64,000 nucleotides of DNA from a phage, in NCBI GenBank assembly GCA_020241865.1, contig GCA_020241865.1_4709.1. One strand, written 5' to 3'. The notes below the pieces were generated by a model, which was not told the origin of the DNA, searched no databases, and saw nothing but the letters and a program-made list of their open reading frames with translations. The position numbers and the translations under genes are program-made. Shown piece by piece: positions 9,400-61,398 of the stretch; within the stretch, counting starts at the first letter, position 1; every line of letters begins with the position of its first letter.

Positions 9400-9405
9400 G
9401 GCGTT

Positions 9406-10058: not shown

Positions 10059-10089
10059 TCGCTTCGTCGAGGTAGGGGAGGATAACACT

Positions 10090-11859: not shown

Positions 11860-11882
11860 GGGGCGGTAACCGCCCCCATCAG

Positions 11883-15479: not shown

Positions 15480-15492
15480 TATTTACTCCACC

Positions 15493-16323: not shown

Positions 16324-16382
16324 GCTGACCTCATAGATGATCGTTGATAGGAAAGAAACCTAATTCATACCATGGGAACCTC

Positions 16383-16439
16383 AAAAAAAAAACGAAAAAA
16401 TAGGAAAACGGTGTTCATCCTTTTTAGGGATGAACACCG
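16383..16439 (-). terminator. strong rho-independent terminator closing the fibre-locus transcription unit
   Basis: 12-bp perfect stem (16409-16420/16428-16439, loop tttttag) followed on the minus strand by a U tract (A10 at 16383-16392 on plus). Confidence 0.8.
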
Positions 16440-16459
16440 CGTACCGTTATATCGAACGA

Positions 16460-17781: not shown

Positions 17782-17956
17782 TTTTTATTCCTTAAACAAA
17801 AGATTGTCTTTTACGCGACATGATTACAAGTACACAGGTTACTGAATTTCTGTAAAAGTTAATTTTCGTAAACTAAAAGAAAATGTATCCGTGTTTCCTG
17901 GTTCTTCCCCTCCACAGCCTCAGGAAGAGAAGAACCGTTTGCTAAGTTGTTATGTA

Positions 17957-18205
17957 TTAAAATGCATTGATTGGACTGTTCAACGCTTTATCACGGATTT
18001 GAATCGCCGCCAGCATTGCTTTCTGGTACGAATCGTAGGCATCGACAGAAACAGTCGTATCAACCAATTCCTTTAATGCGGATTCAGCCGCTTTTACACG
18101 GACGCGGAACTTGGTGATTGCGTTATCTTTGTTACGATAAACCGTGATATGGTGCAGCGGTTGAACTTTGGTTTTAACAGATTTAGTTGCTTTGATCGTT
18201 TTCAT
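17957..18205 (-). CDS. hypothetical small protein
   Basis: 82-aa ORF with ATG start preceded by AAGGAAA. Confidence 0.45.
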   Translation of the reverse strand: MKTIKATKSVKTKVQPLHHITVYRNKDNAITKFRVRVKAAESALKELVDTTVSVDAYDSYQKAMLAAIQIRDKALNSPINAF

Positions 18206-18259
18206 GATGATTTCCTTCTTTATTAGGATGATTACGTTTAGTCAGTTTAACAGCATAAA

Positions 18260-18284
18260 CCCTTCCCGCCTTACGCAGGAAGGG
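18260..18284 (-). terminator. hairpin of the recurrent family (CCCTTCC/GGAAGGG) followed on the minus strand by GTTTATGCTG
   Basis: 7-bp stem 18260-18266/18278-18284; the same pyrimidine-arm/purine-arm/TTTATGCTG arrangement as the other family members. Confidence 0.55.
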
Positions 18285-18298
18285 CATACGGATTTGTT

Positions 18299-18796
18299 TT
18301 ACGTGTGTCGTCGTTTACCAAAGAAAATGTGGCTATCTACCACGGTGATATTGGTAGCATGTTTTCTGAAATGTTTAGGGCGAAGATGTTTCGCGTTAAA
18401 GAATACGGCTCCTCGTGTTGGGTCGGCTTTATGGTAAGCCGCAATGTCAGTATAACGTAATGTTGCGACCTCTCGTGCTATTGCTCTTGCTCGCTCAAAA
18501 GCAGCATGATCGCGTATGACAATACGCCTTTGTTTTGTCCAGGGGAATTGACCTCTTTGCAGTACGACGTCTCTGACGTTCGTAGGGAATCGGTAGTCCA
18601 TAGATCGATTATGTATTAAAAACGCCACGGAGTATTGCCCTTTTACAGATTCGCCTCTGGCTTCCATATACACCGCACATGCGACGATCTCTTTCCGGCA
18701 ATCGATTCTAGGTCCTGCGTTCACCGATGCTTGACTGAACGGTGTAATAAGCAACATAACAAGCCCTAAAATCAACGTGTGTAAAATACCTTGCAT
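18299..18796 (-). CDS. secreted cell wall hydrolase, SleB/Hydrolase_2-like (endolysin candidate)
   Basis: 165-aa ORF; N-terminal signal peptide (MQGILHTLILGLVMLLITPFSQA) and the VACAVYMEARGES motif characteristic of SleB-type hydrolases. Confidence 0.6.
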   Translation of the reverse strand: MQGILHTLILGLVMLLITPFSQASVNAGPRIDCRKEIVACAVYMEARGESVKGQYSVAFLIHNRSMDYRFPTNVRDVVLQRGQFPWTKQRRIVIRDHAAFERARAIAREVATLRYTDIAAYHKADPTRGAVFFNAKHLRPKHFRKHATNITVVDSHIFFGKRRHT

Positions 18797-19337
18797 CTTA
18801 ATAACCTCACGATAAGGTGCTGTCCACTGGCGTCTTGATAACGCATCCCGTCATCGGGTTGTTCTATTCAGCGGGCAGCAGGTTAGCGTCAGATGTTTGC
18901 CCGACATCCACGACAGAAATAAACGGTACTGAAATTACGGTCTCCTCTGGTTTGGCAATAAACATAACGTTGGATAACAGAACCCATTTCCCGCATCCAA
19001 CGCGGTAAAGGTGTACATCGTTTGAATTCATATAGTTTCTCAAAGATGTTAACCTCTACCGTCAAGCCATAGGTTGTATTTATCCCGAACATACGGATCG
19101 CGATAAATACGTCGATAGACTTGATGTGGTATAAACTCGCAATGTACGAGTTCGTCGCTTAATTTATGCCGTCGCTCCATACCGTTGTGAATACGACGTA
19201 TCTCCCGGATATTAAAGGTTGTTTTATTCAAGAGAATAGACATAATGGCAGATCGATGATCCAGATTAAAGATCGCCATCACGCTTCGTATCTCGCGTAA
19301 AACAACTTCTCTATCGACAAGGATGCGATTAGTTAAC

Positions 19338-19709
19338 TTAAGATTCTCCGTGATACCCATAACCTTCATCCTCGACACGTCGACACATCGGTAAAAATAA
19401 ACACCAGCTTGTTGCACTGAGGATCGCCGTTGCGATGATATTTGCGATATCACTCAATCGAGCATCGGCTTGCCACATAACAAGCATGAAAAGAACGTAC
19501 GCGAACCCATACACGACAAACCGTCTGATGTTACGCGTCGACCACGTACAAATATACAAAAGGGGAAGCTGCCCTATAACACAAACGATGGTTCGGATAA
19601 CGTAATAAACGCGTTCCGTCGTTGTTTCAAAATCGATATTCGTTGCAGAAATCCCAATCATTATAAAAGTGAAAATGAAATAGATTTTTGCGTATGCTTT
19701 TAAACTCAT
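19338..19709 (-). CDS. small multi-pass membrane protein (holin candidate)
   Basis: 123-aa ORF with 3-4 hydrophobic helices; overlaps track ORF 19049..19453, one of which is probably spurious. Confidence 0.4.
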   Translation of the reverse strand: MSLKAYAKIYFIFTFIMIGISATNIDFETTTERVYYVIRTIVCVIGQLPLLYICTWSTRNIRRFVVYGFAYVLFMLVMWQADARLSDIANIIATAILSATSWCLFLPMCRRVEDEGYGYHGES

Positions 19710-19725
19710 GGCTTTTCCCGATCGT

Positions 19726-19959
19726 TTATTTGTGTTTTCCTACATTCCTCAACAAGGTAACGATAACGAATACCGCTATCATCAAGAAGACGAACCATAA
19801 CCCTACGTTAATTCGGGCAGCAGGTTCATCGACCATGAAGAACATCATCCCACAAAACCCAATGACCATCCATGCTAGAACCATCCCCGTTAATCCCCGT
19901 AGTAGCATATGTCCCATCATGAACTCCTTCTTACTTTTTCTGATAAAGCGATGATTCAA
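19726..19959 (-). CDS. small membrane protein with two transmembrane helices (holin-like)
   Basis: 77-aa ORF; helices LTGMVLAWMVIGFCGMMFFMV and LWFVFLMIAVFVIVTLL; charged C-terminus. Confidence 0.45.
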   Translation of the reverse strand: MNHRFIRKSKKEFMMGHMLLRGLTGMVLAWMVIGFCGMMFFMVDEPAARINVGLWFVFLMIAVFVIVTLLRNVGKHK

Positions 19960-20093
19960 ATTTTAGAAACATCACTAACGCGAATGCGAGTAATAACGCA
20001 CGTACCCACATACCTCCTTGACAACTGTTGTACAACATAAAGACCAGAGCGATGCCGCCCATATGCAGGCGGCACTTATCGAACAGTGTTGGT

Positions 20094-20321
20094 TTATACA
20101 TAAGAGATCAATCGTTGAATGATTTTTACTTTGCCTTTGCCTGGACCTTTCTTGCGGCGATTCAACAGACGGATACTGTTTCCAGTTACGGTGTCGCCAT
20201 CATAATCAGCCCGGAACTGTGATAAAAAAGCAGGTTGTATCTGATCGACACCAGGATTGCTGTGGAAAGGATTGAGACTTAAAAGAGGGTTAGCTGGAAT
20301 CATCGTATTGTCCTTACTCAA
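20094..20321 (-). CDS. small basic protein with KKGPGKGK motif
   Basis: 75-aa ORF abutting the stop of 20322..20672; the C-terminal RRKKGPGKGKVKII motif is shared with the three small proteins at 38985..39551. Confidence 0.4.
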   Translation of the reverse strand: MSKDNTMIPANPLLSLNPFHSNPGVDQIQPAFLSQFRADYDGDTVTGNSIRLLNRRKKGPGKGKVKIIQRLISYV

Positions 20322-20672
20322 TTATTTACCCAGATAGAGATATTCACCGCCCTGAACAACACCGGTTGCTGGATCAACAAGTATACGAACCCTCGCGTAG
20401 GTCTTGAAAGAGGGGTTGAAAACTTCGAAGTCTGCCACTTTCAATTTCACGCTGGGGTTGGTAGGGTTCTTAACTCCGGGAAGTTCTTTCGGGGTACCGA
20501 AATCAACACCGCATTCTTCAAGGTCTGCTGGCGTCATGCTCTCCATGGCCATGTAGATTGCTTTTGCTTTATCGTAAACTTCTGGGCTATCCAGCAATCC
20601 AGCCTGCGCCGAACCGACAACACTACCGAACAGAATAGCAACAGCAACAAACAATTTAGTTAACGTTTTCAT
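20322..20672 (-). CDS. secreted/periplasmic protein
   Basis: 116-aa ORF; signal peptide MKTLTKLFVAVAILFGSVVGSAQA. Confidence 0.5.
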   Translation of the reverse strand: MKTLTKLFVAVAILFGSVVGSAQAGLLDSPEVYDKAKAIYMAMESMTPADLEECGVDFGTPKELPGVKNPTNPSVKLKVADFEVFNPSFKTYARVRILVDPATGVVQGGEYLYLGK

Positions 20673-20708
20673 GATATTTTCCTCGAAAGTAAAATGTTAC
20701 AATACCTA

Positions 20709-21131
20709 TTAACGTACGGCCGCTACGCTGTTAGCGCATGCCTGAATATCATCGGTATTTACGATGATGGTTTCGTTAAACGCACGAATACGTGCACGAC
20801 GTGCTTCTTTAAGGCTGGCGATTGCGCTAGCAGCTTGATCTGTATTCGCGAGGCTAATAACCGGGATCAAACGCATGTCAGGACTGCAGATATTCAATGC
20901 TTGGTATACACGTCCATTGATTCCTACGGTATCAGACATCGGATAGTGCGCACGGCATTGAAATTGACCCATGACAACAAGCGAACGATCTGAGATACCA
21001 ATCTGATAACGACCATCTTCACTGTAGGCGTAGCAGTTATTCCCACGAGCCATCCAGTTAGCCTGTGCTTGCGTGCTAACAAAAGCCAGGGTGGTGACGA
21101 TAGCGAATACGATATTTTTGAACAGTTTCAT
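20709..21131 (-). CDS. secreted/periplasmic protein
   Basis: 140-aa ORF; signal peptide MKLFKNIVFAIVTTLAFVSTQAQA; several Cys residues. Confidence 0.5.
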   Translation of the reverse strand: MKLFKNIVFAIVTTLAFVSTQAQANWMARGNNCYAYSEDGRYQIGISDRSLVVMGQFQCRAHYPMSDTVGINGRVYQALNICSPDMRLIPVISLANTDQAASAIASLKEARRARIRAFNETIIVNTDDIQACANSVAAVR

Positions 21132-21191
21132 GATAAAGATCCTTATTGAAATAAAATCGGTATAAAGGCCCCCCCATTTAGGGGGACCTGA

Positions 21192-21509
21192 TTAGTTTGC
21201 ACGTAAGAAATGACCTAGAACCGTTACAATTGGAAACAGTCCTGTAACCGTATTATCACCCGAAAACATCATCTTTGAGTCGTTAACGGTGATGAAACGG
21301 ATGTCGGTTGCGGATCCGTCGATAGCGACAAAACGCATTGAGTTCGGTGGAAGATCCTCAACAACTTCCACGAGGTGTTCACGATTTTCAAAGGCTTCTT
21401 TAACACGACGCATGAAACGAATCAATGTTCCTTCAGCGTCGGCTTCCAAATGACCTAAGATATCGCGATTATTGCGAATAGCGAATACAGACATTTTAAA
21501 CATACACAT
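21192..21509 (-). CDS. hypothetical protein
   Basis: 105-aa ORF downstream of the conserved 25-nt motif. Confidence 0.45.
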   Translation of the reverse strand: MCMFKMSVFAIRNNRDILGHLEADAEGTLIRFMRRVKEAFENREHLVEVVEDLPPNSMRFVAIDGSATDIRFITVNDSKMMFSGDNTVTGLFPIVTVLGHFLRAN

Positions 21510-21574
21510 CTTGACATCCTTTTATATTGGATTGATTGCTAATAGTTCAAGGTGAAGCTGATTACTGCATTGCT

Positions 21575-21599
21575 TCACCTAGGTAATATAGCCGTGAAA
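21575..21599. promoter_or_regulatory. conserved 25-nt intergenic motif TCACCTAGGTAATATAGCCGTGAAA (copy 1), candidate phage promoter
   Basis: 24/25 identical to 51961..51985; both lie 41-66 nt upstream of a minus-strand start codon; contains a TATATT (-10-like) element on the minus strand; flanked by inverted repeat 21551-58/21572-79. Confidence 0.45.
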
Positions 21600-21617
21600 A
21601 TTAATGCATTAATTTAT

Positions 21618-22643
21618 TCACGACTTCGCCATGTAGGGTTGAATCGCATGGAAGCGTTTAACCACAACTTCAGGAAAAAGTTTGATGATTTCATCAGGCG
21701 GTGCTGCACCTTCTGTCCAACGATAGCGTTCAACCTTCTCGATGCGTGGACTCCCTCCGACGTCAGCGATACGAAAGATACAGGCGATGCCTAAATCAAA
21801 ACACACGCTGTAAATATCTTCCGTGCCTCCTTTATCAGCAAGTATTTTCGCAAAATGCTCGTTATCAGGAAGAATGGCTAAATTACGTATACGCCAAACA
21901 TTATTACCCATTTCTTCAAGGATTGGGTATGTTAAAGTGTGTCCGTGTCGTGTTAACCATCGATGATTTTCGAGGTAGAAGTCCTTATCCCCTGGCCGGT
22001 AACCCATAATCACTCCCGTGTAGAAGAGATTGGGCATATCGAGCAGTTCTTGAATCGTTGGGCCGGTATACTCCCAGAGACAGATTTGTTTGCGGTCTAT
22101 ATCGTAATCTGTGACGTTACTCACCTCCCAACTTATCGTAAGTTCGTCGATAACATGCCAACCTAAAGTGTGTTCGCAACAAAATAGATTAACAATGGCT
22201 GATATCTCATACTTGTCAAATACCCCCAAATTACACGGTGGTTGCATCGTACGTAACGGCTCCCATAACGCACTGTAATCATAGAGCAAGTGCCGACACA
22301 AACTTTTTGTTAGTGGTGTCTGTTCAGTAAACAGTGGAAGAATCACCTTATCCAATAACAGACGTAACGGATGGTCGTCTGGTGGTAGAGGAGCAACTAG
22401 ACGACCTCCTTCTTTAGGGTAATCAAGGCCAAACCCGTAACGCTCCGAAATGAGTGCAATCAACACTTTTGCTACGCGATTACGTAGCATGCGATGGATA
22501 TCATCACTGTAACTGAATTTCGGTTTATTTCCGCAAACGAAGGTGAAGTATCTAGGTGATAGCTTAACCATAATCTTTTCCTTAATCCAAATAGTACGTG
22601 ATGGATAGGTCTTTTCCATCGAATACAATATCCGTGCAGTCAT
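21618..22643 (-). CDS. hypothetical protein
   Basis: 341-aa ORF; no motif recognised. Confidence 0.5.
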   Translation of the reverse strand: MTARILYSMEKTYPSRTIWIKEKIMVKLSPRYFTFVCGNKPKFSYSDDIHRMLRNRVAKVLIALISERYGFGLDYPKEGGRLVAPLPPDDHPLRLLLDKVILPLFTEQTPLTKSLCRHLLYDYSALWEPLRTMQPPCNLGVFDKYEISAIVNLFCCEHTLGWHVIDELTISWEVSNVTDYDIDRKQICLWEYTGPTIQELLDMPNLFYTGVIMGYRPGDKDFYLENHRWLTRHGHTLTYPILEEMGNNVWRIRNLAILPDNEHFAKILADKGGTEDIYSVCFDLGIACIFRIADVGGSPRIEKVERYRWTEGAAPPDEIIKLFPEVVVKRFHAIQPYMAKS

Positions 22644-23028
22644 GGATGGTCGGTAATACCATTTTTGCTGCTATTGGGACGTATGCCTGCAGTTCCATGA
22701 AGTTGTTCATACGGAACGCACGACGTACCATCAACGGCGTTAAAGTAAACGTTACGCTAACGTTACCGCTTGGGAGCAGGTGCATTATCGCATGTCCGTG
22801 ATCGCACCAGCAATGGTTTTCGATCCATCCGGTGTAAATCAGAATGTCTTTATCTTCGTCGTAATAAGCAATGCCAGTCTGCTTTAAACGGCTGGTAAAT
22901 CGAGAGGCCTGCTCATAGCCCGCACGCAACATTCGAGCAACCAGGCGAGTGTTGTTAGCGATTCGATTCTGTTCGTTGGTTTTTGTGGTTTTGAAAAGTT
23001 CGATACGTTCTGCTTTTGTAATTTGCAT
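22582..23028 (-). CDS. hypothetical protein
   Basis: 148-aa ORF; overlaps the 5' end of the downstream ORF, so the start is uncertain. Confidence 0.4.
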   Translation of the reverse strand: MQITKAERIELFKTTKTNEQNRIANNTRLVARMLRAGYEQASRFTSRLKQTGIAYYDEDKDILIYTGWIENHCWCDHGHAIMHLLPSGNVSVTFTLTPLMVRRAFRMNNFMELQAYVPIAAKMVLPTIHDCTDIVFDGKDLSITYYLD

Positions 23029-23033
23029 GATTA

Positions 23034-23399
23034 CTAACCTAATGAATTGCGTTTAAATAATTGGATGTATGGGGTACCAAATAAAGGACTGTATGAATGT
23101 ATTCGGTTCTCCTCTGATTCGTAATACTCGATAGGCCACGATATTGGTTTAGGTAAACGATCTAACGCTTGCAACACGGCGAGTTTAACGCTATTACTTT
23201 CGATCGGATACGGAAGTACCGTTGACGAACAGAACACACGTGTTCGATGTAAATAAATGAGATGCTGCTGTAGCTTAGACAAACGCCTACGCTTGATTAA
23301 GAAACCAGTTACGCGGCAATCGGAGTGATCGTAGTGATAACGTGCGCTATCGAAATAAACCTGTTCTCCTCTAACAATGAGATACTTTATCGCTTGCAT
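23034..23399 (-). CDS. hypothetical protein
   Basis: 121-aa ORF. Confidence 0.4.
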   Translation of the reverse strand: MQAIKYLIVRGEQVYFDSARYHYDHSDCRVTGFLIKRRRLSKLQQHLIYLHRTRVFCSSTVLPYPIESNSVKLAVLQALDRLPKPISWPIEYYESEENRIHSYSPLFGTPYIQLFKRNSLG

Positions 23400-23446
23400 G
23401 AAAGAGTAACGGCGTAATTATCCATTAGCCAACATGACACGAATCA

Positions 23447-24046
23447 TTACTTATGTTCCAGTGTTGGTCCAAACAACCAGAATGTCAGGCGCTGATAGAC
23501 CTGTTCGCTGACCGCGGCTTCTGTTTGCTCTTCTAGTGATTTCCCTTTTTTATGCTGTATTTCTGGCGGGATGTCGCCCGTGTAAACATACCCTGTTGAG
23601 AAGTCCCACGCCAGCCGTTTACCGAATGTGGGTAAGAACACCTCTTCGAATCGGAACGCTTTCGAATTCCAATGAAGCAGCTGATCGGATTCAACACGTA
23701 ATGCTTTATTACGTTTGCTTGGCATGTTTCCGAAGTACTGAACGATGGCTGACTTCATAACCCGATCAGCGAAGTCTTTGGCTTCGGTCTCATCGAGGGG
23801 AGGCAGGCGATGCGATAGATTCAGCTTGCGTTGTTCAACATCAATCTTACGCATCGCTTTAATCAAATCACTAGGGACGATTTTACCCTTATGTCCTTCC
23901 TGTCGGTGTATGAAACACCCCTGGAATAACACGCAAAGTTCTTGAGGTGCGGTACTTTCCATTCGTCCGTAAGCAACGATCACCGAACGGCGACGGTCGA
24001 TAACTTCGCGGATAAACCGCGGCTCAGTAATACTCACCACTGTCAT
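23447..24046 (-). CDS. hypothetical protein
   Basis: 199-aa ORF. Confidence 0.45.
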   Translation of the reverse strand: MTVVSITEPRFIREVIDRRRSVIVAYGRMESTAPQELCVLFQGCFIHRQEGHKGKIVPSDLIKAMRKIDVEQRKLNLSHRLPPLDETEAKDFADRVMKSAIVQYFGNMPSKRNKALRVESDQLLHWNSKAFRFEEVFLPTFGKRLAWDFSTGYVYTGDIPPEIQHKKGKSLEEQTEAAVSEQVYQRLTFWLFGPTLEHK

Positions 24047-24090
24047 TTAAAGCCCTCTTTATCTTTTTCCATTTCTCTTTACATAACCAC

Positions 24091-24816
24091 TTAAGACGTT
24101 GCCATCTTATCTTCCAGAGACTTCTTCGGTAAACCATGGATAACTCCTTCCGGGGTTAAGAACACACAGTCTGGATTCTGCGTTCGCGAACGGTCGTCTG
24201 GAGTGTTCAACGAGAACAACAACGCAGAAATACCTTTCGTCCGGTTTAACGTCGCTACGATCACGTCAAGCTGCCGTAGTGCATCCGATACCGTTCGATG
24301 AGGAACGATACGTGACTGTTTGAAGCTGGCTAACCGCCAAGTCTCGAACAAACAACGCAGTTTAAACACGTCAGACGGAACAGCAGTAGATCCCTGTTCG
24401 ATAACCTCAACCCGATCAGCTTCAGGATAACCTACGGCAACCGCACTAAAGTGTCTTACCCCATTATGAAAATCATCGATAGATGCTTCAGCGTATTTAC
24501 ATACCGTGCCAGAAACGACCATCACTTTTGCTAAACCGCGATAATTGATCGTCAACGGAATACGAAATACACGTAAAGCATGTTCCGGATTTAATGAGAC
24601 GTCGTTAACCTTCGTTGCGGTCAGCTTACCACGCTCGTAACGTGCGGTGAACGGCAGCCCGTCATAAACGGGATTGATTACAACGCCCCCTGGGGAGGCG
24701 TTAGCGTTAAGATGGACATTAAGCCAATCGGATACTTCCTGTCTACTAGTTACGATTAACATAAAACGGTCCTCCATTTCTTTTCCTTTATTCATGACGA
24801 GTATCTTCCAAATCAT
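24091..24816 (-). CDS. hypothetical protein
   Basis: 241-aa ORF; a degenerate copy of the 25-nt motif core (TATATGCCGTGAAAG, 24866..24880) lies about 50 nt upstream of its start, inside the preceding gene. Confidence 0.45.
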   Translation of the reverse strand: MIWKILVMNKGKEMEDRFMLIVTSRQEVSDWLNVHLNANASPGGVVINPVYDGLPFTARYERGKLTATKVNDVSLNPEHALRVFRIPLTINYRGLAKVMVVSGTVCKYAEASIDDFHNGVRHFSAVAVGYPEADRVEVIEQGSTAVPSDVFKLRCLFETWRLASFKQSRIVPHRTVSDALRQLDVIVATLNRTKGISALLFSLNTPDDRSRTQNPDCVFLTPEGVIHGLPKKSLEDKMATS

Positions 24817-25438
24817 CCCTTTGTTTTGTAAATTCTGATTGCTTGCGATAAACCGTCCACGAATCGTATATGCCGTGAAAGTTCAAATGACGTGCATTTA
24901 AGTTAACGGTGAATTCTTCCACAGAGGAGAAATCCGAACGAAGCATCGAATGGAAGGCGTCATCTCCGGTGCAGCCCCCGTATCCCTCACCCTGATAGAT
25001 CAAAAGCTGATGTGGTTGAATACGCGCGGCAACCAGCGCAGCTTGTGGTTCGCAGTAAGGCGGCCACGACAGTAAAATAACATCGTACTGTGAAAGATCG
25101 ATGTTCGTGTAGTCGACCTGCTGAATGTCCTCGATAAACGGGTGGGGATGTAATTCCGTATCGTAGGCGGTAACGTCCTCAACACCAAGTTTACGTAGTA
25201 CATAAGTCAGGTAACCTGTCCCACAACCCAAATCAGCGACACGTCGCCCGTAACAGATATTCGCTAACTGGAGCGCGGTATCCATGGTTAACAACGACCA
25301 TCCAATGTGCTGGGTACATTCTTCACGCACACTCCATTGTTGATGGTACGTCATGGGTTCTATGATACTAGCAAGCTGCTGGTACGGCAATGGCATTCTG
25401 GTTTCGCCTTGCGTGAGTAATGCAATAACGTTGTTCAT
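24788..25438 (-). CDS. class I SAM-dependent methyltransferase
   Basis: 216-aa ORF; SAM-binding motif I VADLGCGTGYLT followed by an acidic residue at the end of beta-2 (YDTE); substrate not inferable. Confidence 0.6.
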   Translation of the reverse strand: MNNVIALLTQGETRMPLPYQQLASIIEPMTYHQQWSVREECTQHIGWSLLTMDTALQLANICYGRRVADLGCGTGYLTYVLRKLGVEDVTAYDTELHPHPFIEDIQQVDYTNIDLSQYDVILLSWPPYCEPQAALVAARIQPHQLLIYQGEGYGGCTGDDAFHSMLRSDFSSVEEFTVNLNARHLNFHGIYDSWTVYRKQSEFTKQRDDLEDTRHE

Positions 25439-25463
25439 TTTGTTTCCTTTTTTATCAGCATAA

Positions 25464-25484
25464 ACCCTCCCGTGCCGGGAGGGT
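25464..25484 (-). terminator. hairpin of the recurrent family (ACCCTCCC/GGGAGGGT) followed on the minus strand by GTTTATGCTG and an 8-codon mini-ORF
   Basis: 8-bp stem with loop gtgcc; downstream ATG CTG ATA AAA AAG GAA ACA AAA TGA ends in an ATGA overlap with the start of 24788..25438. Confidence 0.55.
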
Positions 25485-25488
25485 ACGA

Positions 25489-25917: not shown

Positions 25918-25918
25918 G

Positions 25919-26452
25919 TTAAGCTCCTTTCTGTTTGATTGATGATGTTAACCACGATGATCTTACCGTGAAACCCTCGGACTCGTAGAACGCCTGGGCT
26001 TCGTCGTTATCAGCACGAACATCCAGGCCGATAGAATGCCCGCCGCATCGGTAAGCGATGTTACGTGCTTCGTTCATCAAGGCGTGGCCGATCCCGCGTC
26101 CACGGTATTTCGGTTTTACAACAATCGATGTAACATCATGAATGCCCATATGGCTCTCTGTATTCACTTCCAAGAGGCCTACCGGTATCGAAGCGATGGT
26201 GTCGATCATAACGACCAACTTTGCGGTGTCCGGTAAACGCTTCTCTAATTCTAAGGCATCGTACTCGCGTTTTAAATCGGGGATATTCTCAAACATAAAC
26301 GTGGTTGCCCATGCCTCTGATTCTACATCATCGAGAATACGGTACAGCTCACGAATCTGTCGTTTATGTGGGTAAAGGTGTGGATCGGCAGCCGTTGAGG
26401 CGATAACGCAATAGAACGGCCGTTCATTAATAACTACTGTTTTGATGCTCAT
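25919..26452 (-). CDS. GNAT-family N-acetyltransferase
   Basis: 177-aa ORF; acetyl-CoA-binding motif A (VVKPKYRGRGIGHALMNEA) and C-terminal motif B (AFYESEGFTV). Confidence 0.65.
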   Translation of the reverse strand: MSIKTVVINERPFYCVIASTAADPHLYPHKRQIRELYRILDDVESEAWATTFMFENIPDLKREYDALELEKRLPDTAKLVVMIDTIASIPVGLLEVNTESHMGIHDVTSIVVKPKYRGRGIGHALMNEARNIAYRCGGHSIGLDVRADNDEAQAFYESEGFTVRSSWLTSSIKQKGA

Positions 26453-26955
26453 GCTAAAATTCCCTCATTACCTAACAGTCGATTACGGTGACGTCGGTAC
26501 ATTTGACAAAGTGTTGTGATTTGATAAAGTTTGTTATAACGTAATTCGATACGTTTTTGCACCTCTTTCCATGAAAGTTTATCATATTGCCGATAACGAT
26601 GGATTTCATTCAACATCCGAAGACGCGTAGGATCGGTATTCTTTATTGTTACGAGCTTCACGCGTTGGTATCCGCGCTGCAACCCCGATTCAGAATACGT
26701 AATGCCGAACTCATCCTGAATGATAGTAATGATCTCCCGCCATCGGCGCTTCTCGCCGTCACGTAAATGGACAACCCGCGATAAGATATCGTTCCGATTA
26801 CGATGACTCAGTTTAATGTTAAGCATTGAAGCAATCGCGCTAATTGCTCTCTGACTCCGCCCTAACGCCTCACCGATCTCTTTCGATGTCATGACGCCAG
26901 CGTTTCGACGTATGAATGCGATTTCGGTTGTTGTGTATTCTTTACCTGCCGCCAT
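26449..26955 (-). CDS. GcrA-like / sigma-70 region-4-like HTH protein, paralog 1 of 6
   Basis: 168-aa ORF; repeated HTH modules (TTTEIAFIRRNAGVMTSKEIGEALGRSQRAISAI ...) matching the W-x-EE-D...L...IA..LGRT...V...R pattern of paralogs 2-6. Confidence 0.6.
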   Translation of the reverse strand: MAAGKEYTTTEIAFIRRNAGVMTSKEIGEALGRSQRAISAIASMLNIKLSHRNRNDILSRVVHLRDGEKRRWREIITIIQDEFGITYSESGLQRGYQRVKLVTIKNTDPTRLRMLNEIHRYRQYDKLSWKEVQKRIELRYNKLYQITTLCQMYRRHRNRLLGNEGILA

Positions 26956-27419
26956 TTCTTACCACGCGTGTTATAATAGTAACGTTGACAAAGATGTGTG
27001 TGATGGTACTCCCGTTTGAACTCGACATTGATAATGCGAGCAACTTCTCTCCAGCTAACCCCTTCATGTCGAAGTGTCGTGATACGGTCTGAAATTTTGC
27101 ACCATTCACCAGGATCGTATCGTCGCAGTTTATGACGTCGTATTACGGAGGCGACGCTCGCTTTCGAGCGACCAAGATGATTCGACATTCGTTTAATCGA
27201 GTATCTATGGATATTATCGCGAATATAGGAAAGCTCGTTGTCTGTATACGTCGCGTTGGTTCTCGGCGAAGGGAACAATACGTATAACTTATTCTTAATC
27301 GCGCTTTCTGTGCGTTGAAACACGGTAACCAGTTCACTAATCGATGGTCTAGGTATTTGATACGCGTAATTCTCGAGGCGTGAGAGTTCCTCATCTGTCC
27401 AGCGGCGGTATTTGCGCAT
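26889..27419 (-). CDS. GcrA-like HTH protein, paralog 2 of 6
   Basis: Start placed at the internal ATG (MRKYRRWTDEELSRLENY); the track ORF extends to 27503 and would overlap paralog 3; 3' end overlaps paralog 1 by 67 nt. Confidence 0.55.
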   Translation of the reverse strand: MRKYRRWTDEELSRLENYAYQIPRPSISELVTVFQRTESAIKNKLYVLFPSPRTNATYTDNELSYIRDNIHRYSIKRMSNHLGRSKASVASVIRRHKLRRYDPGEWCKISDRITTLRHEGVSWREVARIINVEFKREYHHTHLCQRYYYNTRGKKWRQVKNTQQPKSHSYVETLAS

Positions 27420-27894
27420 GGGCAACTCCTTTGTTTTTCGTGTAATAACACCAACGTTGATACAACGCATGTTTATTCGTTGTAATCCCAAATTTAACAA
27501 CAACGTCGTATGTGATAATATTCCAATTTTGGGTGACGTTAAGTCGTTCCGCGATAAACGCGATAATCGCTTCCCGTTCTTGCTTGGTTAACGCACGACG
27601 AATTCCATTAAGCCGTATAAACTGACGAACCGAGTCATACGAACGGTTTAAATCATACGCAATCTCCCTCAGCGATTTTTGTTTGATTACGGACTTGATG
27701 TACGCACGTTCTTCTTCCGTATACGGTCGATGCTTCTGGCGTTGACGTATTCCCAAACGCCCCAGACACGCGTCGATGCTGGCGTATGTTCGTCCTGTCC
27801 GTTGTGCGATTTCATCAATCGTCAGCGGCGTGTTCAAGTACATGTGTGTAACATCTTTTAACTCATCGTTACGCCACGGCCGAGGTCGTCGCAT
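27391..27894 (-). CDS. GcrA-like HTH protein, paralog 3 of 6
   Basis: 167-aa ORF; WRNDELKDVTHMYLNTPLTIDEIAQRTGRTYASIDACLGRLGI plus a second HTH repeat. Confidence 0.6.
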   Translation of the reverse strand: MRRPRPWRNDELKDVTHMYLNTPLTIDEIAQRTGRTYASIDACLGRLGIRQRQKHRPYTEEERAYIKSVIKQKSLREIAYDLNRSYDSVRQFIRLNGIRRALTKQEREAIIAFIAERLNVTQNWNIITYDVVVKFGITTNKHALYQRWCYYTKNKGVAHAQIPPLDR

Positions 27895-28372: not shown

Positions 28373-28374
28373 AA

Positions 28375-28854: not shown

Positions 28855-28866
28855 AATGCCACCCCA

Positions 28867-31557
<2,691 letters not shown>

Positions 31558-32270: not shown

Positions 32271-32529
32271 TTACGCCAGGCGGTACCACAATACCGGTAC
32301 GAATCACAGCAGCAACTTCCTGCATGCCCTTACCCTTCAACGCATAGGTTTCATGTACCACATTACGTCGAGTCGTTAATCCAACAAATTTACATACAAC
32401 CATGTTGTTTTCTGAAAGATAAGCGGTGTCGAGTTCACCGTGCAACAATTCTTTTTCTTTGGTATCAATACCTAATAACGCAATTTGATAAGCAGAAAGT
32501 TTCCAATAACGCATAATCGTCCTATTCAT
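32221..32529 (-). CDS. hypothetical protein
   Basis: 102-aa ORF; overlaps the downstream gene, so the start is uncertain. Confidence 0.35.
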   Translation of the reverse strand: MNRTIMRYWKLSAYQIALLGIDTKEKELLHGELDTAYLSENNMVVCKFVGLTTRRNVVHETYALKGKGMQEVAAVIRTGIVVPPGVSDNLDEVLHGTRKTAR

Positions 32530-33350
32530 AAACTATCAAATATTCTGAAACCAAGTTTCTTGTTTCTACTTTTGCCGAAATCGTTCTTCGTACAGTTACA
32601 GGGTACAATTTTGTCGCCGAACTATAAATCTCTTCAGTCAACGCACAAGCACTGTTGCTAATGATTGTAGGAATTCCCCGCGAGCGCAAGTTGTCAGCCT
32701 TTTCTGCAAGATAACGATGATCGTCTAATGTAAACCCCTCTTGAGTATAGCCCGTAAACGATGCGGTGGGGGAAATGGGAATATAAGGAGGGTCGCAATA
32801 AACGACGTCACCCGGAACCACCTTTTCAAGATGCTTCTGGAACCCACCACTTACAATTTCTACCCCCCCCCCCCTCGACGAAGGCAGCCTGAAGATGGTT
32901 CGCTGCCAGACGCAATTCCTGTTTCGGGAAATAGACGGTCTTATACCGCCCATGCGCAACATTAAATAAACCATCACGATTATAACGACATAAGCCATTG
33001 AAACCGTAACGGTTTAAATACATGAAGCAAACTGCGCGTTCCCACGGATCTTCAGCGCGGTTAAAACGTTCACGTATCTCGTAGTAGCTTCTGACGTCGG
33101 TAGGATCCGTTTGAAAAAGACGTTCCACTTCTTCGATGAAAGATTCTGGACGCGCTAGCAACGCAGACCATACTGAGAGAATATCCTCATTCGCATCACC
33201 TATCGAATACGCTGGGTACTTAAGAGCAAGCGTAACAGCGCCGGAACCAACGAATGGTTCAACAAGACGCTTTCCTTTAGGTAACACTTTTTCAATCTCA
33301 GGGATAAGCCTGGTTTTGTTCCCAAGCCATTTAAGAAATGTTCTGCTCAT
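32522..33350 (-). CDS. dam: DNA adenine (N6) methyltransferase, Dam family, reading frame interrupted at a G12 homopolymer
   Basis: Two overlapping ORFs (32826..33350 and 32522..32998) whose frames differ by 1 are together collinear with E. coli/T4 Dam: N-terminal KWLGNKTRL ... EPFVGSGAV SAM-binding region in the first, catalytic DPPY motif in the second; the junction is the G12 run (C12 at 32863..32874 on plus); one fewer G would fuse the frames. Confidence 0.8.
32863..32874. repeat. C12 homopolymer (G12 on the coding strand) inside the dam coding sequence
   Basis: 12 consecutive C counted directly; encodes GGGG in the upstream frame; same length and same TCG 3' flank as the tract at 10047..10058. 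Confidence 0.9.
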
Positions 33351-42756: not shown

Positions 42757-42842
42757 AATAGAACCTCATGATAATAGATAATAGAAATGATAGATAGTAC
42801 AACAAATTGAGGGGGTATTATCCCACCCCCTCGTAGGGATTA

Positions 42843-51233: not shown

Positions 51234-51920
51234 TTAACACATGATTTCACCATGTTTCTTTTCGACATACGTATAAACATCATCCAAATAAGCAATGAGT
51301 TTATCACGATCCGCACAAAGCGATTTAATCGCCGCAATCTCTTTCATATAAAGCTGCTGACCTAACGCTGGATACGTAATCCAAGCGTAGCCGTCAGGCG
51401 CAAATTTAGAAATAAGATAATCGGCGGTTTCCTGTAATGCGAACTCTTTGCTCATCTGACCGTAACGATGTTCGATTGCGCGGATACCAAAACGTTCGCT
51501 ATCAAGACGACCCATATCCGCCAGACGAAGCACCTGAGAAGCAACCGAGCTGCGTGGACCAGAGTACGAGGCACGATGTTCAGCAATAAGTACACGTATC
51601 TCTTCGATGTCTTCCGGTGTGAAAATATGCTGCTCGTTACGAAGCAGAATAACCGACGCACGAATACCCCCGATAAGGTGGTGGTAGGTTCTGTTTTCAT
51701 GGCAAGCGATATCATGCATAAAAGCAGCTGTTAATAGACGGCGGCGTTCGGTAGGTCTAATAATCCCAACCACATCAGCAAGTTCATTTGCCAGTTCAAC
51801 AACAGCAAGCACATGTTCTTCTTGATGTGCAAGATCGTTCTTCCGAATATTTTCAATTACTTCAGCGCGTGTTTCCTGAGATAAGAAATTTAAACAATCC
51901 AACGAATATAAAGATTTCAT
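51234..51920 (-). CDS. HD-domain phosphohydrolase
   Basis: 228-aa ORF; H ... HD ... D pattern (EEHVLAV, AAFMHDIACH, RLADMGRLD). Confidence 0.5.
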   Translation of the reverse strand: MKSLYSLDCLNFLSQETRAEVIENIRKNDLAHQEEHVLAVVELANELADVVGIIRPTERRRLLTAAFMHDIACHENRTYHHLIGGIRASVILLRNEQHIFTPEDIEEIRVLIAEHRASYSGPRSSVASQVLRLADMGRLDSERFGIRAIEHRYGQMSKEFALQETADYLISKFAPDGYAWITYPALGQQLYMKEIAAIKSLCADRDKLIAYLDDVYTYVEKKHGEIMC

Positions 51921-51960
51921 CGCACGTACCTCTTTGAATCTATTAATAAATTTTCTTTAC

Positions 51961-51985
51961 TCACCTAAGTAATATAGCCGTGAAA
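51961..51985. promoter_or_regulatory. conserved 25-nt intergenic motif TCACCTAAGTAATATAGCCGTGAAA (copy 2), candidate phage promoter in a divergent region
   Basis: 24/25 identical to 21575..21599; 41 nt upstream of minus-strand start 51920 and 144 nt upstream of plus-strand start 52129. Confidence 0.45.
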
Positions 51986-52064
51986 GGATTTGTGTTGGCC
52001 CGTTTCGATGCCCATCGTATTTTATGGATTGTCGAATGACGTCATTTTAAGGGACATCCCCGGC

Positions 52065-57133: not shown

Positions 57134-59395
57134 TTACAATTCAAAATCTTCATCGATAACGCGCTGGGTAAGCACTTTGTCGCTGAAGAACTCCACCTTG
57201 CGCTGATGGTATTTACGATGTGCTTCTATCGAAGTACATACCAGATACCAGAACGTTGGTGTCATTCCTTCAAACTTCCCTTTCAGCTGACGTAGCCGTC
57301 CCAACACCTGAATGTTACCGGTTCGTGACCCCATCGCTAACGTCATGAACGTCATCACCAAGTCAGGAAGGTCGATGCCCGTACCTGCCGATTTCACGGT
57401 TGTAACGCTAATATCGTTATCCAACAAGACCATGAAATCTTCTTCAGCAGTATAAGGACCAATCTCTAACTCAGGAATACGTTCACTGAGATAATGCGAC
57501 AACGACTTACACATATCGACGGTTGCACAATACACCAGCATCTTCATACCTTCCTGATACTGGTTCATGAAACCTTTGATTATAACGGTATAGATGAAGT
57601 TAAAGTACGCGAGTTTGAGTTGCTTGTTCTTCATGATAGACTGTTCGAATATCGTGTGAGAATAAGAACCCCCAAAGCCTTTGTATCTGACTTTATCTGT
57701 ACTGCGTAGTCGATACGTCACGGCATTTACCGCAATGTATTTCTTGTATTCGCCTTTTGCATAACGGGCTTCTTTCGGATACATCAAATACAACATCCGC
57801 TCGATGAATGGATCGTCGGACACCGCCGTTGCTGACAGATAGATGATTTCCGGAATACTAGCGTAACACTTGACCTTAAACAAGAAATGCAATGCTTCAT
57901 GGCACTCGTCATGAATCAGAAGGCCTATGCCGGTCTTTTCCCAAAACTCGGCGGGATGGAAGGCATATGGCGCAACGCAGTTATTCTTCTCGTAGTCCGC
58001 AATATAACGTTGGAACATGTTCAAGGAGAACAATGCGATTTTGAAGTCGAGTTCACCTTGTTCAACCAAGGTTTGAAACTCCAACATACTGTAACGAGGA
58101 ATGTCGGGATGCGGTGGATCCTCCTTAGCGTTCCCGCGTATCTCGATAACATCCCCTGGTTCCATCCCGAAGAAGTTCAGCAGTGAGCTTCGCCAACCTG
58201 GCATATACCGCGGAGAAAGTATAATACCTGTGCGTACACCCCGCCTAAACACGATTTCCTGCGACATCGCGGTGTTATGCGTGACGATGTGGTCTTTAAT
58301 AACATAAAGGCTTTCGTCATTGTCCACCGTGATACAACGTGCTTTCGATTTCACCGTCGGCACGATGCTATCAATCGCTAAACCAGGAAGTCGGTTAACG
58401 GGGAGATCGTCTGGAATCTCAATGTCGTCAGGAATAAGCTTACGCAAATCGGAATGGTAAATTAATGTCACCATTATGTAACTATCAATGGGGTATTTAT
58501 ACGCAATTCCTCCTAACTGATAAGCCAACTCCCAGACCTTGGCTGTTATCTGCGAATTGACGGTTCTGACCGCAAGGTGAGCTTCCCCGTTTTTGATTCT
58601 CAGTTCACAACGACCTTTGATTACCGCCTTAAATTCCTCGAGACCGACGAGTTCTTTCGGTTCGTAAAGTCGGATTCTTACTGGACGAGATCGAGCAGGT
58701 CTGTCGTAAATACATTCCATGATTTCGTCCGTACTGAGAACTTTATCAGGGTCAGTACACTGCCAGAGATGATCACCACACGCTTCAACCATCCTACCGT
58801 CCTCAAAGAAGATAGCATAAAGCTGAATATCGTCATGATCAAATATAGCGGTTACGTTCGTCGGTAACCCATCCGCACCAATAACCTGATCCCCTAACTG
58901 AAGCTCGCCAATCGGCTTCCAACCGCCTGGAACCTTCACAGGTGTATTAAGCGGAATTGCTTTTCCTGACCCTGTTTGAGCGGTGTTTAGGCTCATTCTG
59001 AAGGGGGTATCCTTACCCCCGTCCATGTACTCCAACCATTCTTGCTGATCTTGACGCCATGGAAACTTCCATTTCTTTACGAACTCCACTTCTTTACCTG
59101 GTACCGGATCGTGATAGACGATTTCCAACCACTCTTTTCGTATCCCTCGAGAAAAGATAAAATCCAAAAACGATTTCAACTGTTCACGGAGTAAGTATAC
59201 CTCGCTATAATCGCTTCTTGCCGCGGCATACGTGTTTATGGTATCGGTAACCATTCTCCGTGTACGAGGGTCACGCCGTTTCCTCAGATGCAAACAACGG
59301 TCTCGAAGGTAATGGCCGATAAGATGGGCAAATCGAAGTCCGTATCCGCTCAGCCTCATGCCATGCGAGAAGACGTCGATACGAGCTAACTTCAT
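57134..59395 (-). CDS. SF2 DExH-box helicase/ATPase interrupted by an in-frame intein in the Walker A motif
   Basis: 753-aa ORF; Walker A is split as TGSGK / intein / T, which would read TGSGKT after splicing; motif II LLIHDECHEA downstream; start overlaps the stop of the upstream gene (ATGA). Confidence 0.75.
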   Translation of the reverse strand: MKLARIDVFSHGMRLSGYGLRFAHLIGHYLRDRCLHLRKRRDPRTRRMVTDTINTYAAARSDYSEVYLLREQLKSFLDFIFSRGIRKEWLEIVYHDPVPGKEVEFVKKWKFPWRQDQQEWLEYMDGGKDTPFRMSLNTAQTGSGKAIPLNTPVKVPGGWKPIGELQLGDQVIGADGLPTNVTAIFDHDDIQLYAIFFEDGRMVEACGDHLWQCTDPDKVLSTDEIMECIYDRPARSRPVRIRLYEPKELVGLEEFKAVIKGRCELRIKNGEAHLAVRTVNSQITAKVWELAYQLGGIAYKYPIDSYIMVTLIYHSDLRKLIPDDIEIPDDLPVNRLPGLAIDSIVPTVKSKARCITVDNDESLYVIKDHIVTHNTAMSQEIVFRRGVRTGIILSPRYMPGWRSSLLNFFGMEPGDVIEIRGNAKEDPPHPDIPRYSMLEFQTLVEQGELDFKIALFSLNMFQRYIADYEKNNCVAPYAFHPAEFWEKTGIGLLIHDECHEALHFLFKVKCYASIPEIIYLSATAVSDDPFIERMLYLMYPKEARYAKGEYKKYIAVNAVTYRLRSTDKVRYKGFGGSYSHTIFEQSIMKNKQLKLAYFNFIYTVIIKGFMNQYQEGMKMLVYCATVDMCKSLSHYLSERIPELEIGPYTAEEDFMVLLDNDISVTTVKSAGTGIDLPDLVMTFMTLAMGSRTGNIQVLGRLRQLKGKFEGMTPTFWYLVCTSIEAHRKYHQRKVEFFSDKVLTQRVIDEDFEL
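58274..58960 (-). mobile_element. intein (about 229 aa, Ala1 ... His-Asn, +1 Thr) inserted in the helicase P-loop
   Basis: Begins AIPLNTPVKVPGGWKPIGELQLGDQVIG (Hint block A-like) and ends ITVDNDESLYVIKDHIVTHN followed by T (blocks F/G with terminal HN); no LAGLIDADG or HNH motif recognised in the middle. Confidence 0.7.
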
Positions 59396-61398
59396 AACGT
59401 GATTACATCCTCCGGTTTAGGTTCTTTACGCGGTAACAGCATGTAGTCGATCGGATGATCCGGCTTCATGGTTGGGATATAACTGTTCGGGTTTTGGAAC
59501 GCATCCAGTTGCTCTTGGTGAGCGAACTTCATACTCAAGGAGCGCATGTTCATGTTCTTCTTGAAGGTACTGAAGTATCGTGTTGTTCCCTGTTTCGGCA
59601 TGCGATAATCTTTCGTGTGTGGCGAACGAATCATGCTGGCGTAGAGAATAACGTCGAGATGCGAAAGGTTCATTCGCAGACGCTGGGCACACAGACGATG
59701 CCAATAATACAGCACGTTTGCAACTTCTTCCGGTGTTGCTTCGTCTTCCGAGAGGAATCCGGCACTGAAAGAACCTTTCCCGAATTTGAACTCACGTTCG
59801 ATTTCTTTTGCGTATTCCATCATGTTTTTGTGGATTAACGGCATCTGGAATAACGTACGTGAATTGTCCCAATGTTTCAAGTCGAAAATCACAATCCCGT
59901 CAGACGTCACTTCCCAGCTATGGCGTTTAAGATAACGGATAAACGCTTTACTCGGTACAACAGGACGACCGCAGAAATCGAAATTGACTTTGAGCTTACG
60001 ATAGCTTTCATCTTTCCTGTCGTAAATCTCCATATCGCAAAGCGTCATGTTAAACAAACGTTGCGGTATCAGCGAACTGATTTCTTCCGCTTCGGCTACA
60101 TCGTACAACATGTTCGCAAGACCTAACTTCATCTTAATCAGCACGTGTTTACCTTTCAGCTCACGTGCGAGTTTGATGTCGTTCATGTTCTGGCTGTAGC
60201 GAAGGATATGTTGATATTCAGGTGGGATTGGTGCTGTGGATACCGTTGACGAACCATCGTGGTGTTTGGTAGAAAGAATGTTCTGCGTTACCTGTTGCGA
60301 GCAGGTACGCGCTGCACCATCGCCGACATTATCGGTTAGTGCGAAGTTATGACTTAATTCACCGTAACACGTTGTACATACCCCAGCAGGATCGGGATGA
60401 TGGCAATAGTTAACGGAGCGCATGCGTACCGTCGTACCAATCAATTCTTTCATGTGTGGTTGTATCGCTACCAACGAACCGTCATCACGAATAATGAATC
60501 GACCATGGAAGCCACGCAGGTCGGTCTCATCGCGGATTGGCATCGGGATGGTCTCTTTACTACCACAATCACCAGGATGGAGTCGTTGCACGACCGCTGT
60601 CGCTATCTGAAGTTCACGACCGAAGTATTCAGACTTCTTGATCTGCTCTTTGTTAAACAACAACGATTTTGCCGCAGAACGGCTTTCTTTCAAGCTGTCG
60701 GGAAGAGAGATCAAACCTGCCGCGTATGACCGCATTACTGGATCACGGAATATCTCGGAGTTAATATCAGTCAAGAATCCACGCATCCCAATACACTGTA
60801 GCACCTGCCCAATCGAAACGTGTTCGGTTCTTACCGCACGTGCAATAGGGTTTGCATGTAACGTTTTATCGGTGCTCAGTACCTTGGTCAGTTTCTTGTA
60901 TGCGCTTTCGATACCTTCACGGGTGGGTTCCGCTTCGGCGATGATTTTCTTAACTTCGGGGTGTACAGTAATCTGATAAAAATCATCCGCGCAAATCGTT
61001 GTTACGTATTCCTCCAACGCATACGTAAAGAAGTTATACACATTGTTAAACATATCGAACAATGCTTTCCAGAGAACCTCACGATTCTCTTGTGGGTAAG
61101 CATACATGCATTGACGATACGCGGCGCTTTGCAACGCAACCGATGAACCCGCTGTGAACTTGCGTTTATCAACCAGGTTCTCTTTTGTCAGTGGTGTCTC
61201 AGGATACATGCGATGCACAGACCAGTGCATGTAACTAAAGAAAATGCGTCGCGCACGTAATTCATGAACGCCATCGTCCATCTCGATATATACGCGGTCA
61301 TTAGGCTGTGCCCACTCGAATACCTCATCAACCGGCCAGTGCATAAGCTCGCGTGCCCTCACACGACGTTTCGTGGTGGTCGTCTGTGTTGTAGTCAT
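59392..61398 (-). CDS. large hypothetical protein with Cys/His cluster, translationally coupled to the helicase
   Basis: 668-aa ORF; CHHPDPAGVCTTCYG cluster; function not recognised. Confidence 0.5.
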   Translation of the reverse strand: MTTTQTTTTKRRVRARELMHWPVDEVFEWAQPNDRVYIEMDDGVHELRARRIFFSYMHWSVHRMYPETPLTKENLVDKRKFTAGSSVALQSAAYRQCMYAYPQENREVLWKALFDMFNNVYNFFTYALEEYVTTICADDFYQITVHPEVKKIIAEAEPTREGIESAYKKLTKVLSTDKTLHANPIARAVRTEHVSIGQVLQCIGMRGFLTDINSEIFRDPVMRSYAAGLISLPDSLKESRSAAKSLLFNKEQIKKSEYFGRELQIATAVVQRLHPGDCGSKETIPMPIRDETDLRGFHGRFIIRDDGSLVAIQPHMKELIGTTVRMRSVNYCHHPDPAGVCTTCYGELSHNFALTDNVGDGAARTCSQQVTQNILSTKHHDGSSTVSTAPIPPEYQHILRYSQNMNDIKLARELKGKHVLIKMKLGLANMLYDVAEAEEISSLIPQRLFNMTLCDMEIYDRKDESYRKLKVNFDFCGRPVVPSKAFIRYLKRHSWEVTSDGIVIFDLKHWDNSRTLFQMPLIHKNMMEYAKEIEREFKFGKGSFSAGFLSEDEATPEEVANVLYYWHRLCAQRLRMNLSHLDVILYASMIRSPHTKDYRMPKQGTTRYFSTFKKNMNMRSLSMKFAHQEQLDAFQNPNSYIPTMKPDHPIDYMLLPRKEPKPEDVITL

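Follow-up and report, generated by a model that had tools for sequence, protein, structure and literature searches.

Two copies of a 25-nt element lie upstream of minus-strand genes

By the window we mean the whole 64,000-nt stretch of phage DNA analysed here, in which the original prediction had commented on a pair of near-identical 25-nt motifs as a candidate phage-specific promoter. A pattern search of these 64 kb found two occurrences of TCACCTARGTAATATAGCCGTGAAA and no more, one at 21575-21599 and one at 51961-51985, identical to each other at 24 of 25 bases (one difference), and in 100 dinucleotide shuffles there were no matches even with up to three mismatches. The first copy lies in the intergenic gap that separates two minus-strand ORFs, 21192..21509 and 21618..22643, and the second in a divergent intergenic gap between ORF 51234..51920 (minus) and a plus-strand helicase gene. 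From the low end of the motif to the minus-strand ATG we measured 66 nt (ATG at 21509) and 41 nt (ATG at 51920), in agreement with the intergenic placement first described (41-66 nt upstream of minus-strand starts). The minus strand carries nearly all genes of the window, so the motif is to be read on that strand and has the form TTTCACGGC-TATATTAC-YTAGGT-G-A. The features at the two sites, with the promoter parts given as predicted, are as follows:

21192..21509, minus: first gene after P1, 105 aa, homologue of Goslar_00105 (ORF list, Goslar annotation)
21568..21617, minus: putative early (virion-RNAP type) promoter P1, full conserved extent, with an A/T-rich element at its upstream end (exact motif, profile, PWM)
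21599-21591, minus: TTTCACGGC of P1
21590-21583, minus: core TATATTAC of P1
21582-21577, minus: 6-nt spacer CTAGGT of P1
21576, minus: predicted +1 G of P1
51234..51920, minus: first gene after P2, HD-domain phosphohydrolase, 228 aa, homologue of Goslar_00159 (Pfam HD, E 5.6e-8)
51954..52003, minus: putative early promoter P2, in the divergent intergenic region (exact motif, profile, PWM)
51985-51977, minus: TTTCACGGC of P2
51976-51969, minus: core TATATTAC of P2
51968-51963, minus: spacer TTAGGT of P2
51962, minus: predicted +1 G of P2
59392..61398, minus: gene for a subunit of the nvRNAP (non-virion multisubunit RNAP), homologue of PHIKZ074 (gp74) (phmmer against PDB)

The phosphohydrolase gene stands at the head of a long run of minus-strand genes, and a Pfam search of the 105-aa ORF at 21192..21509 found no family. 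The flanks of the two copies had been described as unrelated, which is correct beyond ~45-50 nt, where similarity ends, but upstream the similarity extends past the 25-mer and takes in an A/T-rich element, TTAAT.CA..., also visible at the family level (see below). Likewise, there is no conserved -35 hexamer, as was stated, but a conserved upstream element does exist.

The window derives from a Goslar-like jumbo phage

Escherichia phage vB_EcoM_Goslar is a nucleus-forming jumbo phage of the Chimalliviridae and the E. coli model for nucleus-forming jumbo phages. Members of the phiKZ-like family carry in the virion a multisubunit RNA polymerase (vRNAP), which enters the cell along with the DNA and needs no host RNAP to transcribe early genes. 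Identity between the window and Goslar (MK327938, 237,307 bp) is 93-97%, and the window corresponds to ~93-154 kb of that genome, with 93.7% and 96.4% identity in the DNA around the two sites. All five vRNAP subunits have been detected in Goslar virions (bioRxiv 10.64898/2026.04.21.720040). While the vRNAP genes are located outside the window, a homologue of an nvRNAP subunit is inside it, the best PDB match to ORF 59392..61398 by phmmer being 7OGP chain D (PHIKZ074; E 1.3e-86). Because this PHIKZ074 homologue is encoded there, a phiKZ-type transcription system is present in the window's phage; the gene is no part of the promoter element itself.

A family of sites on the coding strand of the Goslar genome

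By itself TATATTAC was not enriched in the window (2 found, 2.39 expected), and a promoter signal was clear only once the flanks and the whole Goslar genome were taken in. Scanning the full 237-kb Goslar genome, with the GenBank annotation used for gene positions, we found ten copies of TATATTAC, all ten on the minus strand. Eight of these are intergenic and share ~40 nt of flanking consensus; the two intragenic copies have nothing in common beyond the octamer. A sequence-only profile (R1) trained on the eight Goslar and two window sites identified 12 strong Goslar sites with E-values of 1e-12 to 1e-4; each is on the minus (coding) strand, 25-205 nt upstream of an ORF start. The search beyond the window suggested in the original prediction thus returned a dozen strong copies. 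Four of them had not been used in training (minus strand, TACATTAC cores, E 1e-7 to 1e-4). Scores from a PWM built from Goslar sites only were bimodal in that genome, with 12 sites at 45 bits or more, then 12.5 and 11.2, and all else at 8 or less. Counting two weak sites along with the 12 strong ones, Goslar has 14, every one on the coding strand; the window holds exactly two. In the window, R1 with filters off recovered P1 (45.7 bits, E 2.8e-13) and P2 (40.8 bits, E 9.7e-12) only, the next best match having an E-value of 0.11, and the Goslar-only PWM gave them 49.8 and 49.2 bits; because both models were built from the family that they detect, scores at training sites are inflated, and support independent of training comes from the four untrained Goslar sites together with four chmA loci from other genera.

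The pattern TAYATTACYTNNNTG had 13 matches in Goslar where 0.19 were expected from mononucleotide shuffles, 13/13 on the minus strand. By the annotation twelve were intergenic, with a minus-strand start codon 25-152 nt downstream, and the remaining one was inside the 62-aa ORF call gp47. A strong promoter copy at Goslar 49710-49759 (minus) falls within this annotated Goslar_00047, making the gene call, or its start, doubtful. The genes after the sites are gp4, gp21, gp40, gp46/47, gp75, gp105, gp159, gp175, gp182, gp189, gp210 (weak site), gp221, and gp236, the site upstream of gp159 being orthologous to P2. Goslar_00189 is chimallin (chmA), with a full-length match to PDB 7SQT (E = 0, 1433.9 bits), and thus one strong site precedes the nuclear-shell gene; in Goslar, transcription in the early infection vesicle, where the vRNAP is located, includes that of chmA (bioRxiv 10.1101/2023.09.20.558163).

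Alignment of the sites showed TAYATTAC to be invariant in 12/12 strong sites, about a third of which have the TACATTAC core, and the sixth and seventh bases after it to be T and G in 14/14 aligned sites. Upstream, TTT at -23 to -21 shows almost no variation and is preceded by an A-rich tract at -30 to -24. The resulting Goslar consensus is TTAATnCAAAAnnTTTCACGGCTAYATTACCTAnGTGA (also written TTAATnCAAAAAtTTTCACGGCTATATTACYTAnGTGA). Three sequence subclasses can be told apart: one with the exact 17-mer TTTCACGGCTATATTAC (the window and four Goslar sites), one of the A7-TTTCAGGG type that includes chmA, and one with the TACATTAC core.

Two degenerate cores in the window, at 24873-24880 and 25966-25973, had also been proposed as promoters, which we could not uphold, as they lie inside ORFs 24788..25438 and 25919..26452 and have no TAYATTAC downstream, the sequence there being ATATACGA... 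and TAAGATCA..., respectively. With filters off, R1 gave the first 3.1 bits (E 7.8) and the second nothing, as for chance matches. The TTTCACGG block that they contain occurs seven times in the window against 3.07 expected, a count reached in 4 of 100 shuffles, and the motif itself accounts for two of the seven. Separately, the gap upstream of the nvRNAP gene (59392..61398) contains a weak promoter-like site at 61479-61528 (minus; CCTACATAACCTAAGGG, overlapping ATATATTAAC), which is the same in Goslar, has two invariant positions broken, and scores 11.2 bits by PWM against at least 45 for true sites.

Conservation among Goslar-like genomes

We compared conservation in three genomes: the window, Goslar, and a metagenomic relative. 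At site 1, the only substitution in the block CATTAATTTTCACGGCTATATTACYTAGGTGAAGCAATG (CATTAAT to GCAATG) is at the Y position, whereas the 44 upstream columns have many. At site 2 the three genomes agree at ~99% over the entire intergenic region, so conservation there is uninformative; with the compared sequences 93-100% identical overall, site 1 is the only one at which conservation informs. An IMG/VR scan for the 17-mer TTTCACGGCTATATTAC found Goslar, two Goslar-like contigs (90-97% identity), and one unrelated 42-kb contig, and no deeper comparative set was obtained from it. The unrelated contig was rejected as a family member, since the flanks of its 17-mer misfit the consensus.

The element precedes chmA in other genera

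To look outside Goslar-like phages we located chmA by tblastn in phiKZ, PhiPA3, RAY, and Eowyn and read the upstream DNA. All four have a common architecture, AAAAAAATTT....TATATTAC-N5-T-G, and with Goslar the element stands upstream of chmA in five genera:

phiKZ, upstream of chmA (gp54): TAATGAAAAAAATTTGAGATT TATATTAC TAAATT G
PhiPA3, upstream of chmA: ATTGAAAAAAATCTCACATC TATATCAC AGGTGT G
RAY, upstream of chmA: AAATTCAAAAAAATTACAAGTC TATATTAC GTATGT G
Eowyn, upstream of chmA: TATATTAC TTAGGT G A
Goslar, upstream of chmA: TATTGAAAAAAATTTCAGGGT TATATTAC CTAGGT G

The chmA site was the top R1 match in the RAY (E 1.1e-6), phiKZ (E 2.2e-5), and PhiPA3 (E 2.9e-3) loci. In Eowyn the chmA core ranked second (E 3.2e-4), virtually tied with another plus-strand site further upstream (E 2.5e-4). 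This other site, at 1000-1026 (+) of the Klebsiella phage Eowyn locus and ~200 nt upstream of the chmA core, matches only the upstream half of the profile.

PHIKZ054 is reported to have the early promoter motif, with a primary transcription start site (TSS) mapped there by dRNA-seq (PMC8244752). More generally, according to Sokolova et al. (PMC7598289), a conserved motif stands before presumed early operons in all jumbo phages that encode an RNAP. It is a ~10-nt A/T-rich block centred near -10, presumed to be read by the vRNAP, and wherever transcripts have been profiled this motif is the early promoter consensus (PMC7598289).

The two sites as probable early promoters

Taken together, we consider that both copies in the window are very probably early promoters of a Goslar-like Chimalliviridae jumbo phage, read by the injected virion RNAP. 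The original prediction that the promoter depends on an RNAP or factor of the phage and not on sigma-70 was well founded given the phiKZ-type core, the 12-site family in sense orientation, the copies at chmA, and the lack of a sigma-70 match, and its reading is sharpened here, with support, to a virion-RNAP early promoter. Recognition by the vRNAP, early timing, and a start 6 nt past the core are carried over from published relatives and would apply to the window's phage by extension. In such a scheme the vRNAP packaged in the virion and injected with the DNA would recognise both promoters directly. As this established model has the injected polymerase itself recognise the promoter, the GcrA-like HTH proteins first suggested for a gel-shift become superfluous.

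Reading along the minus strand, the predicted promoter would comprise an A/T-rich stretch from about -36 to -24, TTTCACGGC at -23 to -15, TATATTAC at -14 to -7, and then six variable to semi-conserved bases, the last being the invariant T, with the next, invariant G as +1; the 25-mer described originally would span -23 to +2. AR9 early promoters have the form AAATATATATTAT-(6N)-G+1, and the TSSs of phiKZ and phiR1-37 are 6 nt downstream of the element (PMC5312081). Because transcription starts 6 nt after the element in these three phages, we predict starts at the invariant G, i.e., at 21576 and 51962 on the minus strand, which would give leaders of 67 nt (P1) and 42 nt (P2). The corresponding predicted starts of the 12 strong Goslar sites are 2553, 15053, 43252, 49718, 86691, 113783, 142786, 160777, 166055, 172964, 201930, and 226681.

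From these starts P1 and P2 would drive the runs of minus-strand genes downstream. Possible ends of the two units, from a consensus scan, are:

16408..16440, minus: terminator-like hairpin, 13 pairs and a T-run, possible end of the P1 unit
42809..42832, minus: terminator-like hairpin, 9 pairs (6 G-C), possible end of the P2 unit

These ends are putative, and since terminator-like sites were no commoner than in shuffles the hairpins are weak evidence for them. Two annotated Goslar terminators (132985-133005 and 133619-133642) are within the stretch that aligns near 42809..42832, a correspondence at the level of the stretch only.

Two further structures were seen near the sites. A 9-bp inverted repeat, AGGTGAAGC / GCTTCACCT, at 21550-21580 (minus) spans the predicted site-1 start, and in the three Goslar-like genomes it has four substitutions in its 13-nt loop and none in its arms; it may be a 5'-terminal stem-loop, of which the RNA would contain only 5 bp with +1 at 21576. 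On the plus strand, a strong hairpin (GGCCTCCTCCCCA...TGGGGAGGAG) followed by TTTTT at ~52062-52098 is 31 nt away from the helicase ATG (52129) downstream of it. It is annotated as a terminator in Goslar, though without a preceding plus-strand gene, and may be a stop for antisense or read-through transcripts or a structure of the 5' UTR.

With 175 of 249 Goslar genes detected at 5 min and only 12-14 sites in the genome, either the transcription units are very long or the profile misses some early promoters. A bolder idea, tentative and on balance doubtful, is that Goslar-type phages might run their whole early programme from ~12 vRNAP promoters in sequence subclasses, with the G/C-containing -23 to -15 block as a lineage-specific promoter extension that could set strength or timing or be read by a candidate vRNAP specificity subunit or co-injected factor.

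Alternative readings of the element

It is improbable, in our judgement, that the sites are instead middle or late promoters for the non-virion RNAP, or dual early/middle promoters, although the phage does encode an nvRNAP and in phiKZ a middle start accompanies the early one at gp54 (PMC8244752). The late promoters of phiKZ are TATG at the start and the middle ones a weak AT-rich/TACT motif near -22 to -24 (PMC7598289, PMC8244752), and neither copy has TATG in it, just downstream of it, or near the predicted start. Moreover, the middle and late classes are poorly conserved and, according to a review, cannot be found bioinformatically (PMC7598289), whereas the motif here resembles the early class in its length and high conservation.

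We regard as quite improbable that the conserved block is an operator, i.e., the site for a phage DNA-binding regulator such as an HTH protein from the window rather than the element of the polymerase. ORFs 26449..26955 and 26889..27503 match HTH domains weakly, below threshold, and a 14-nt palindrome, ATTAATGCATTAAT, is present in the upstream part of site 1; however, conservation of the palindrome extends neither to Goslar nor to the metagenomic relative, and the motif is asymmetric, oriented with the genes in 13/13 cases, and common to genera in which its role as an early promoter is established. Nothing requires an operator overlapping the promoter.

That E. coli RNAP transcribes from the sites as host sigma-70 promoters, with TATATT as the -10 hexamer, seems very improbable. 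TATATT is one mismatch from TATAAT and some copies have a weak TTAAT(C) ~16-17 nt upstream, but a scan for TTGACA-/TATAAT-like pairs 16-18 nt apart found no site in 21400-21800 or 51800-52200, and sigma-70 requires neither the conserved TTTCACGGC in the position of a spacer, nor the C after TATATTA, nor T-G at +1. The same motif is used by phages of Pseudomonas, Erwinia, and Klebsiella, and phiKZ and its relatives encode their own RNAPs, rifampicin leaving the infection unaffected (PMC13282480). Sigma-70-like sites were in fact rarer than in dinucleotide shuffles (28 against 37.7 +/- 5.3 in 9000-28900; 21 against 40.8 +/- 7.0 in 36000-55900), a deficit in keeping with a phage that makes no use of host RNAP, though it could also reflect coding constraints.

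Lastly, a structured RNA element or a non-regulatory remnant of duplicated or mobile sequence is hardly credible: the two copies, at 24/25 bases, are closer than the family average, but they have no shared fold (z-scores of -1.59 and +0.24, with different structures), an Rfam search of the window found no family, their similarity is over after ~45-50 nt, family members have only the consensus positions in common, and position and strand are tied to gene starts.

Other features of the window

A D12/Dam-class N6-adenine DNA methyltransferase gene is split between overlapping minus-strand ORFs in different frames, 32826..33350 and 32522..32998, which match positions 1-159 and 158-253 of Pfam PF02086. 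The 852-nt block that contains it (32514-33366) is absent from Goslar, in which just 34 nt separate the flanks; the split could represent a frameshifted pseudogene, a sequencing error, or recoding. A 327-aa ORF at 41216-42199 (minus) has a DUF7448 domain (E 3.9e-24) and is in a stretch without Goslar alignment. The tail-fibre gene at 5875-9399 (minus; 1174 aa, with Phage_tail_fib, Phage_fiber_2, and Peptidase_S74 domains) is 83-90% identical to Goslar gp90 or does not align, far more diverged than the rest, and this divergence suggests a different receptor specificity.

Comparison with known promoters

The kind of element described here is already known, as TATATTAC is the predicted promoter of phiKZ (PMC7058600 Table 2), and what we report is its occurrence in a Goslar relative. 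We found no published promoter consensus for Goslar-type phages: the Goslar genome paper never uses the word "promoter", the GenBank record annotates terminators and no promoters, and the Goslar RNA-seq paper reports no motif. Biologically, then, a known rule is confirmed and no new rule is added; points for the specialist are the small number of sites relative to phiKZ, the three subclasses, and the strongly conserved, G/C-containing -23 to -15 block TTTCACGGC. In nucleus-forming jumbo phages the vRNAP finds promoters without a known sigma factor, and the consensus, ~12 genomic sites, and predicted starts are templates for in vitro transcription and structural work on this enzyme. The consensus also helps to delimit early operons and flags one doubtful ORF call.

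With sigma-70 promoters the window sites share an A/T-rich element ~10 nt upstream of the start, but they are without a -35/-10 pair at 16-18 nt spacing. Like promoters of T7-type RNAPs they have a long contiguous conserved block running into the start site; in contrast, the polymerase here is multisubunit, without a known sigma, and in a plus-strand T7-like frame all copies would be antisense to genes.

Against the predicted consensus sequences of PMC7058600 Table 2, the Goslar consensus is a near position-for-position match. These are TTAWTAVAA_HYWTTTRARR_BTATATTACDWHDGTG for 201phi2-1, BSHAWWWWWTTTYARRYAKATATTATYWWADTG for OBP, TBYAWWWWWTTTCARRYAKATATTATYWAAGTGWA for N1M2 (the last two also given in short as ...TTTCARRYAKATATTATYWAAGTG), and WTTTYAAACCTACATTATY for EL, whose TACATTA variant is the one seen in Goslar. 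The 201phi2-1, OBP, and N1M2 sequences have TTTCA at ~-23 and GTG at the start, as in Goslar; they are bioinformatic predictions from other genera, and OBP and N1M2 differ in having TATTAT in place of TATTAC.

AR9 shares the TATATTA core, the six bases, and the G start, and in this phage recognition by an injected multisubunit vRNAP has been shown experimentally (chloramphenicol-insensitive; PMC5312081). It differs in that it is no chimallivirus and has uracil-containing DNA, and the upstream part of its promoter is purely A/T, without the TTTCACGG block.

The early promoters of phiKZ differ from those of Goslar, whose host is E. coli, in the -23 to -15 block, which in Goslar is more G/C and more conserved (TTTCACGGC vs TTTGAGATT at phiKZ gp54), in number (12-14 copies per genome in Goslar vs ~28-32), and in that a third of the Goslar sites use TACATTAC. 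They are alike in the identical 8-nt core, the A/T tract and TTT block upstream of it, the T-G 6-7 nt after it, the sense orientation upstream of operons, and the copy before chmA/gp54 (PMC7058600, PMC8244752, PMC7598289).
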